From: a virus
Length of the DNA: 49,858 nt
Strand: one strand, 5' to 3'
Virus genome (UHGV): UHGV-0134932
Shown here: piece after piece, positions 13,888 through 15,167 of the stretch
Layout: each line of letters opens with the position of its first letter
Position numbering within the stretch: position 1 is the first letter of the stretch
Made by a program: the position numbers and the translations under genes
Notes under the pieces: generated by a model
What the model was told of the DNA's origin: nothing
What the model saw: the letters and a program-made list of their open reading frames with translations, nothing else
Databases searched by the model: none

Positions 13888-15167
13888 ACAAGCTAAGTTA
13901 TCTGGAAAAGTTGCTGGATGGGGTTGAGGTTGAGTGGTTGACTGCCGCTGAGATTTTCAACATTAAAAATGGCTATACGCCATCTAAAGCTAAAAAAGAA
14001 TTTTGGGAAGATGGGAATATCCCTTGGTTTAGGCTTGAGGATATACGAACTAATGGCAGAGAGCTTAATGATTCTATTATGCATGTGAATCAAGCAGGAG
14101 TTAAAGGCAACCTTTTTCCTAAAGATTCAATATTTATGTCAACGACGGCAACAATAGGAGAGTTTGCTTTGGTCAAAATACCACATTTGACCAATCAGCA
14201 AATTACCAATTTTTCATTAACTAGCAGATTTAAAGGAATTATAGATATAAGATATTTATTCCATAGATTCCATCACTTTGGGGAATGGTGCAAGGAAAAC
14301 GCTAACAAAAGTGGCGGTTTATCCATTATAGGAATAAAAAAATTATCATCGTATAAATTCCCAATTCCTTGCCCCGACAACCCGGAAAAGTCCCTTGCCA
14401 TCCAGTCTGAAATCGTTCGGATTCTGGATAAATTTACTGCACTTACCGCTGAGCTTACCGCTGAGCTTACCGCTGAGCTTAACATGCGTAAAAAACAGTA
14501 CAACTACTATCGTGACCAGTTGTTGAGTTTTGATGAGGAGCAGGAAAAACCTATTTATCTGGAAAAATTGCTGGATGGGGTTGAGGTTGAGTGGTTGCCA
14601 TTGGGGGAAGTCTCAGCCTTAAGAAGAGGCAGAGTTATGTCAAAGGGATATTTAACTGAAAATTTTGGCCCATATCCTGTCTATAGCTCTCAAACTGCAA
14701 ATAATGGGAAAATAGGTTCTATCAATACCTTCGATTTTGATGGCGAATATATAAGCTGGACAACAGATGGCGCAAATGCAGGCACTGTGTTCTATCGAAC
14801 AGGTAAATTTTCAATAACTAATGTTTGCGGCCTGATTACATTAAAAAATAAATACCCATTAATCTACAAATTTCTGTTTTACTGGCTAACAATAGAAGCC
14901 AAAAAACATGTTTACTCAGGAATGGGAAACCCCAAGTTAATGAGTCATCAGGTTGAAAATATACCTGTACCAGTCCCCTGCCCGGATAATCCGGAAAAAT
15001 CCCTTGCCATCCAGTCTGAAATCGTTCGGATTCTGGATAAATTCGACACCCTGACCAACTCCATCACCGAAGGTCTCCCGCGTGAAATCGAGTTGCGCCA
15101 GAAACAATACGAGTACTACCGTGATTTACTGTTCAGTTTCCCGAAACCTGAAGCTGTCAGTAATTAA
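13884..15167 (+). CDS. hsdS: Type I specificity subunit HsdS with duplicated conserved regions and a central TAEL x3 repeat
   Basis: Two target-recognition-domain-like halves each followed by [23 protein letters not shown]; central [12 protein letters not shown]. Confidence 0.92.
14445..14480 (+). repeat. Three perfect tandem copies of a 12-bp unit (accgctgagctt) encoding TAEL in the hsdS central conserved region
   Basis: Direct read of sequence. Confidence 0.95.

Follow-up and report, generated by a model that had tools for sequence, protein, structure and literature searches.

What does a short tandem repeat inside a specificity gene do when the same gene also carries long internal direct repeats, and has either kind of repeat changed what the encoded enzyme recognises? 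This question is raised by an hsdS gene in a stretch of 49,858 nucleotides of the virus genome UHGV-0134932, which is called the window here. In an earlier note on this DNA, the gene was assigned to the type IC restriction-modification systems, in which the number of TAEL-encoding units sets the spacer length of the bipartite target, and the long repeats were proposed as substrates for a change of specificity. As argued below, the window most probably (at roughly 85%) carries an operon of the EcoR124 family, whose hsdS is a three-unit spacer variant of the gene for the E. coli protein P0001 and is built from portable TRD cassettes.

A type IC operon on a P1-like phage-plasmid

The first 25 kb of the window are 96-97% identical to P1, SJ46, RCS47 and vB_EcoM-673R5 and, to judge from these matches, the window represents part of a P1-like phage-plasmid. 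Landmarks of P1 were also found, namely a C4 antisense RNA, an isrK-like sRNA, tRNA-Met/Thr/Asn, iteron-like repeats with periods of 21 and 31, and phd/doc, an addiction module that lies just 5' of the hsd operon (landmark sites: 5696-5783 (-), 5828-5906 (-), 31956-32031, 33472-33625 (-), 40096-40285, 41313-41393 and 10560-11161 (-)).

The operon consists of three open reading frames on the plus strand in the order hsdM-hsdS-hsdR (Table 1). The stop codon of hsdM overlaps the start codon of hsdS by 4 nt (ATGA), and hsdR is separate. This gene order with coupled hsdM and hsdS genes is characteristic of type IC systems. HsdM matches the EcoR124II M protein (PDB 7bst_D) with 1145 bits over residues 1-519, and HsdR, which contains the Pfam domains HSDR_N, SWI2_SNF2, T1R_D3-like and EcoR124_C, matches the EcoR124 HsdR subunit (PDB 2w00_A) with 2264 bits over 1038 of 1038 residues. 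The bit scores and the EcoR124_C domain mark both proteins as close relatives of, and almost identical to, the EcoR124 subunits, and the type IC system is therefore judged to be complete. HsdS has a pair of TRDs and, in CR1 and CR2, two conserved regions that are helical. The conserved regions at the N-terminus, in the centre (with the TAEL units) and at the C-terminus of HsdS align to EcoR124 HsdS (7bst_A), and a 4-residue gap in this alignment falls exactly at the site of the extra TAEL of the window. The type IC assignment of the earlier note is thus confirmed by the EcoR124 matches of HsdR, HsdM and the HsdS conserved regions. According to section 27 of the review PMC3874165, type IC HsdS proteins, with their conserved regions, begin and end within the second helical region, an organisation that is also seen in the HsdS of the window, and section 22 of PMC12707154 gives subunit complementation with other members as the hallmark of a type I family. 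Among the open reading frames of the window, no prrC anticodon nuclease gene was found embedded in the hsd locus. Altogether, these sequence comparisons show that the P1-like phage-plasmid carries a restriction-modification operon of the EcoR124 family (type IC), which is complete with hsdM, hsdS and hsdR and is predicted to be active.

Table 1. Features of the hsd operon and of the hsdS gene; positions refer to the window
Feature	Position	Strand	Basis
hsdM, type IC methyltransferase subunit, 520 aa	12325..13887	+	ORF; Pfam HsdM_N and N6_Mtase
hsdS, type IC specificity subunit, 427 aa	13884..15167	+	ORF; Pfam Methylase_S, two stretches
Left cassette flank, copy 1 (D2), directly 5' of TRD1	13898..13940	+	Repeat search
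TRD1, about residues 20-159	13941..14360	+	Variable region between conserved blocks
Right cassette flank, copy 1 (D1), start of CR1	14361..14434	+	Repeat search
Three perfect 12-bp units ACCGCTGAGCTT, TAEL x3, CR1 helix	14445..14480	+	Tandem Repeats Finder, translation
Rest of CR1 helix and linker DEEQEKPI	14481..14554	+	Translation, alignment to 7bst_A
Left cassette flank, copy 2 (D2), upstream of TRD2	14555..14597	+	98% identical to copy 1
TRD2, about residues 239-362	14598..14969	+	Core match in other HsdS
Right cassette flank, copy 2 (D1), start of C-terminal CR2	14970..15043	+	91% identical to copy 1
CR2 helix, C-terminal tail, stop codon	15044..15167	+	Residues 377-427 match 7bst_A 354-404
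hsdR, type IC motor-nuclease subunit, 1038 aa	15289..18405	+	ORF; 121 nt 3' of hsdS

The TAEL array and a two-unit sibling

Only one tandem array was detected in hsdS by Tandem Repeats Finder. It extends from 14442 to 14481 with a period of 12, 3.3 copies and 100% matches, and its repeat unit is CTTACCGCTGAG. In the reading frame, the array resolves into three units ACC GCT GAG CTT (14445-14456, 14457-14468 and 14469-14480), which encode residues 188-199, exactly as the earlier note had described them. Moreover, the array together with the DNA at its edges corresponds to the EcoR124II primers for deleting one TAEL unit that are quoted in PMC10644984. With three TAEL units, CR1 comprises 32 residues after ILDKF, and CR2 also comprises 32 residues up to ...SF (14433-14531 versus 15042-15140). 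The coiled coil would be symmetric in the three-unit form because CR1 and CR2 are then of equal length, whereas a two-unit CR1 is 4 residues shorter than CR2. In the review PMC3874165, a passage on the repeat states that three TAEL units seem to be optimal, and the equal lengths of CR1 and CR2 in the window agree with this view.

The closest database proteins, P0001 and P0002 from E. coli (423 aa), contain two TAEL units and otherwise differ from the HsdS protein of the window by 0 or 1 residue; for P0001, there is no amino-acid difference besides the one TAEL unit. Their loci (L001 and L002; GCA_017046015.1 and GCA_018022315.1) belong to the same P1-like region as the window. Over hsdM-hsdS-hsdR (12325-18405, 6.1 kb), a single 12-bp unit is the sole nucleotide difference between the window and these loci, and over positions 3884-18500 it is accompanied by only 1-2 substitutions near 12000-12500. 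Since the 6.1 kb contain no substitution, the unit change must have happened more recently than any point substitution in these three genes. Beyond 18500, the window and the two loci have diverged by 1-6% in blocks. The divergence over 18500-25200 starts just past the hsdR stop codon; this pattern suggests that the P1-like backbone is a mosaic, with a recombination breakpoint where the hsd operon ends on its 3' side.

The exact three-unit HsdS protein of 427 aa is present on six contigs from several samples. Among its 120 closest HsdS relatives, which have one TRD in common with it, two units were counted in 109 and three perfect units in none; the most parsimonious explanation is therefore that a two-unit parent recently gained one unit. 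EcoR124I and EcoR124II are a pair of natural alleles that are identical except for the TAEL count, and the same relation was found between the window allele and P0001, which are, at the level of sequence, a natural counterpart of that pair.

Unit number and spacer length

The consequences of such a difference have been described for the prototypes. EcoR124I with two TAEL units recognises GAA N6 RTCG and EcoR124II with three units recognises GAA N7 RTCG (PMC3874165, section 25). EcoDXXI and EcoPrrI also have three TAEL units and N7 spacers (PMC3874165, section 25; PMC12707154, Table 1), and the methylated adenines are 7 bp apart with two units and 8 bp apart with three (PMC12707154, Table 1). 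In EcoR124I/EcoDXXI hybrids, engineered unit numbers shift the spacer as predicted, and section 25 of PMC3874165 ascribes the change in unit number to unequal crossing-over at the repeat. Spontaneous interconversion of EcoR124 and EcoR124/3 is also on record in that review. The parts of both publications cited here thus agree with the earlier note that the TAEL count sets the spacer length and that two versus three units is a known switch.

Applied to the window, CR1 and CR2 would form an antiparallel coiled coil that holds the two TRDs apart, and the third TAEL unit would lengthen the CR1 helix by 4 residues relative to the two-unit allele. As in EcoR124II, EcoDXXI and EcoPrrI, the three-unit state would move the TRDs one bp further apart, giving 8 instead of 7 bp between the methylated adenines. 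The three-unit allele most likely arose from the two-unit sibling by the gain of one 12-bp unit, either through replication slippage or through unequal crossing-over; we infer this route as well as the rate of the gain. By the same reasoning, the half-sites of the window allele should be those of P0001, and the spacer between them should be one bp longer. EcoR124 HsdS, the sole characterised relative that was compared, is too distant for assigning these half-sites: TRD1 shares only about 37% of its residues with the C-terminal (RTCG) TRD of EcoR124 and TRD2 has no significant match. Because neither TRD corresponds to the GAA TRD or the RTCG TRD, the half-sites of the window enzyme are expected to differ from those of EcoR124.

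The mechanism leading from unit number via helix length to spacer length is already documented, and the window is a new natural example of it, in which an uncharacterised TRD combination coincides with a natural two-unit/three-unit pair. The rule that links helix length to the spacer has been tested with few TRD pairs only. The window allele and its two-unit sibling are a natural pair with which the rule can be tested beyond the half-sites of EcoR124, EcoDXXI and EcoPrrI.

Variability of the unit number

The pair described above has counterparts. Four more sibling pairs were found in which the alleles differ by nothing but unit number or by at most two residues, giving five independent pairs in total: L036 (three units) and L035 (two), L006 (three) and P0055 (two), L038 (three) and L014 (two), and P0008-P0012 (two) and P0015-P0016 (one). 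Among IMG/VR loci found via HsdM, the hsdS gene has two units in 34 cases, three in 21 and one in a single case. Moreover, a 149-bp probe from the central region identified 1348 records, which were distributed over 1258 of 5426 complete E. coli genomes. In an evenly spaced sample of 60 of these 1348 records, for which the units were counted from alignment lengths, two units were present in 29 records (about 51%) and three in 24 (about 42%); one and four units were each seen in one record and five units in two, and three records were unclassifiable. Alleles with one, four, five and six perfect units were verified by reading the sequences. The TAEL count is thus a common polymorphism in E. coli, with three units as a common state and one, four, five or six units as rare ones. 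Counting the repeats across related assemblies, the check proposed in the earlier note, therefore yielded one to six units, including a two-unit allele that is otherwise identical to that of the window; since relatives differ in unit number, the repeat is not invariant. Exact look-ups of one-, four- and five-unit versions of the window allele gave no match, in a search that also missed the window protein itself.

The longest arrays occur in a particular setting. hsdS alleles with five or six units were located at L085:958-1029, L086:958-1017, L089:5058-5117 and L090:5058-5117, the sources being E. coli PCP06235, 1916D6, NC101 and S30 plasmid C. All four of these examined alleles lie in damaged loci; hsdM is truncated in three of the four, and in two of them hsdS is split by ISEc45 or IS1. 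The one-unit locus L088 and the four-unit locus L087 appear intact. Judging by these four loci, long arrays may persist only where the system is already dead, or they may themselves favour its inactivation.

Gain and loss of TAEL units might be a device for rapid diversification that is peculiar to P1-like phage-plasmids. A change by one unit would at once make otherwise identical elements restrict each other and would thus result in kin discrimination or exclusion, the host would survive through the assembly control of type IC enzymes, and five or more units would be promiscuous or toxic and select for inactivation. We consider this idea doubtful; if it is true, the toxicity or promiscuity of at least five units would explain why all four examined alleles with five or six units are found in damaged loci.

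It is unlikely that the array is a programmed high-frequency switch for phase variation, by which populations of P1-like plasmids keep generating two- and three-unit subpopulations as a form of bet-hedging against phages or rival plasmids. A switch of this kind would be in line with the five independent sibling pairs and the range of one to six units, with the complete lack of point differences in hsdMSR between two- and three-unit forms and with the interconversion of EcoR124 to EcoR124/3 that is documented in PMC3874165. However, three 12-bp units are short beside classical contingency loci, and the three-unit allele is identical on the six contigs from several samples, as is P0015 on 26 contigs. 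In contingency loci, a change in tract length shifts the reading frame and thereby switches expression on and off. By contrast, all variants with one to six units remain in frame because the 12-bp unit corresponds to four codons, and for the same reason expression cannot be switched by a frameshift. The one-TAEL allele P0015/P0016 (419 aa) combines a different TRD pair with its short array, and its presence on 26 contigs means that the one-unit state has been propagated in nature. Stable inheritance of each unit state fits the occurrence of the three-unit allele on six contigs and of the one-unit allele P0015 on 26. These observations support recurrent unit change on an evolutionary time scale rather than programmed phase variation.

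Long direct repeats as flanks of TRD cassettes

Regarding the long internal direct repeats, a repeat search found both the coordinates and the description given in the earlier note to be correct. The two copies of D2 (43 nt) are spaced by 657 nt (219 codons) and those of D1 (74 nt) by 609 nt (203 codons), so that both spacings are multiples of three, and the last 44 nt of D1 are identical between the copies. In view of their length and identity within 1.3 kb, these repeats cannot be attributed to chance. The right flank encodes P(I/V)... directly after each TRD and opens each of the two helices. A weak similarity was also seen 5' of the left flank, between 13872-13897 (GAGGCTCAGGAATGAAC...), which comprises the end of hsdM and the start of hsdS, and the CR1-TRD2 linker at 14532-14554 (GAGGAGCAGGAAAAACC...). 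Possibly, a half-gene was duplicated together with its upstream junction and gave rise to the second half of hsdS.

The distribution of the TRDs among other hsdS genes reveals what the flanks enclose. TRD1 is 99-100% identical in many HsdS proteins of Klebsiella and E. coli, where it usually occupies the N-terminal slot; in P0019 and P0031, it is located in the C-terminal slot with the same flanks. Among the 120 relatives, the core of TRD2 (at most three mismatches in a 30-residue probe) occupies the C-terminal slot in 35 HsdS proteins and the N-terminal slot in 31, almost always with the same flanks. Type IC HsdS proteins with slot-swapping TRDs and the same flanks include P0003, P0019, P0024 and P0031. 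At the DNA level, the TRD2 half is 98.8% identical to NZ_AP027686.1 over query positions 472-1284, and TRD1 is 95-96% identical to its counterparts in Klebsiella plasmids. Over at least 80% of the gene, the TRD pair of the window was found in none of the plasmid, phage and complete E. coli records at the DNA level. The mosaic pattern of TRDs across hsdS genes requires recombination in or near the flanks. As judged by comparison between genes, D1 and D2 act as handles for TRD cassettes, which are portable and can occupy either slot. The repeats proposed in the earlier note as substrates for a specificity change are thus real and the cassettes are mobile; a role as flanks of exchangeable TRD cassettes fits them better than one as generic recombination substrates.

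The flanks would allow homologous recombination to swap TRDs between hsdS genes or between the two slots. If the copies recombined inside a single gene, 219 or 203 codons would be lost, leaving in-frame half-genes with one TRD that encode 208 or 224 aa. Single-TRD subunits of EcoR124I and EcoDXXI are functional as homodimers, with palindromic targets (PMC3874165, section 26; PMC12707154, Table 1). An exact-sequence look-up of the half-genes of 208 aa and 224 aa gave no match, and the same look-up missed the window protein, which is present on six contigs.

Alternatively, the long repeats could reflect nothing but a constraint at the protein level, acting where the TRDs begin and end and in the coiled coil, and involving no recombination. 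The repeats do encode structurally important parts, namely the starts of the helices and the strand before each TRD, and some internal similarity is common to all type IC HsdS proteins (PMC3874165, sections 26-27). However, the identity of 98% and 91% is found at the nucleotide level and includes the identical run of 44 nt. Furthermore, identical TRDs with identical flanks occur in both slots and in many combinations, and the TRD pair of the window recurs in no record at the coverage given above. EcoR124 HsdS is functional with a divergent C-terminal flank (QQRIVEILDKF), and the near-identity of the flanks in the window should therefore be due to shared cassette ancestry and not to protein constraint alone. 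In our view, an explanation by constraint alone has a low probability, and exchangeable cassettes account better for the repeats.

Activity of the system and reliability of the unit count

The effect of the third unit on specificity presupposes an active enzyme. If the hsd system of this element were inactive, the unit number would be a neutral polymorphism that has no effect on specificity, and many type IC loci of E. coli are indeed damaged by IS elements or truncation. However, the window contains three full-length open reading frames nearly identical to those of the biochemically active EcoR124 subunits, both TRDs of HsdS are intact according to Pfam, and the operon shows no substitution between plasmid backbones that diverge elsewhere, so that inactivity appears very improbable. 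The chance that an error of assembly or sequencing produced the count of three is negligible and this explanation was rejected: although the window is a SPAdes-style contig from a short-read metagenome (NODE_97 of ERZ1744269, ENA), in which tandem repeats can be miscounted, the array of 36-40 nt is shorter than a read, three-unit alleles are frequent in complete genomes and an independent isolate assembly (L004, GCA_017047275.1) is 100% identical to the window over 15,949 bp, array included.

Comparison with known systems

The hsdS gene of the window leaves the current understanding of the spacer mechanism unchanged. The common TAEL polymorphism and the TRD cassettes that fit either slot are useful for predicting the specificities of type I systems from their sequences. 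In both respects, the gene can be placed beside systems that have been described before.

In phase-variable hsdS genes with simple sequence repeats (PMC7383803), a variable tract inside hsdS alters the behaviour of the methyltransferase, as is proposed here. Unlike those tracts, the array of the window has a unit of 12 bp, stays in frame and consists of three units; because of the in-frame 12-bp unit, a change in its length would alter specificity and not switch expression on or off. The same paper cites TAEL and EcoR124I/II as a precedent for spacing changes. The movement of domains and shuffling of TRDs in hsdS of Helicobacter pylori (DoMo; PMC3077401) resembles the behaviour of the window TRDs in that the same TRD is found in either slot and is flanked by repeats. 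The setting differs, as DoMo was described in H. pylori, whereas the family of the window consists of enterobacterial type IC genes that are located on plasmids, phage-plasmids and chromosomes and have flanks of 43 nt and 74 nt. Recombination of modules in type IC systems goes back to Gubler et al. 1992, as cited in PMC12707154.

EcoDXXI and EcoPrrI, which were compared by unit count, share with the window the natural occurrence of three TAEL units in CR1; set beside these two systems, the window locus has no embedded prrC. The closest known systems are EcoR124I and EcoR124II (R124 and R124/3), the prototype pair of type IC. They have almost identical HsdM and HsdR subunits, the same gene order hsdM-hsdS-hsdR, the same conserved regions of HsdS and the same DNA of the 12-bp unit. 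The differences concern the TRDs, the flanks, of which the two copies are nearly perfect duplicates in the window and the second copies are divergent in EcoR124 HsdS, and the carrier, which is a P1-like phage-plasmid in the case of the window and the conjugative plasmid R124 in the case of EcoR124. EcoR124I and EcoR124II differ from each other by one TAEL unit, exactly as the window allele differs from P0001.
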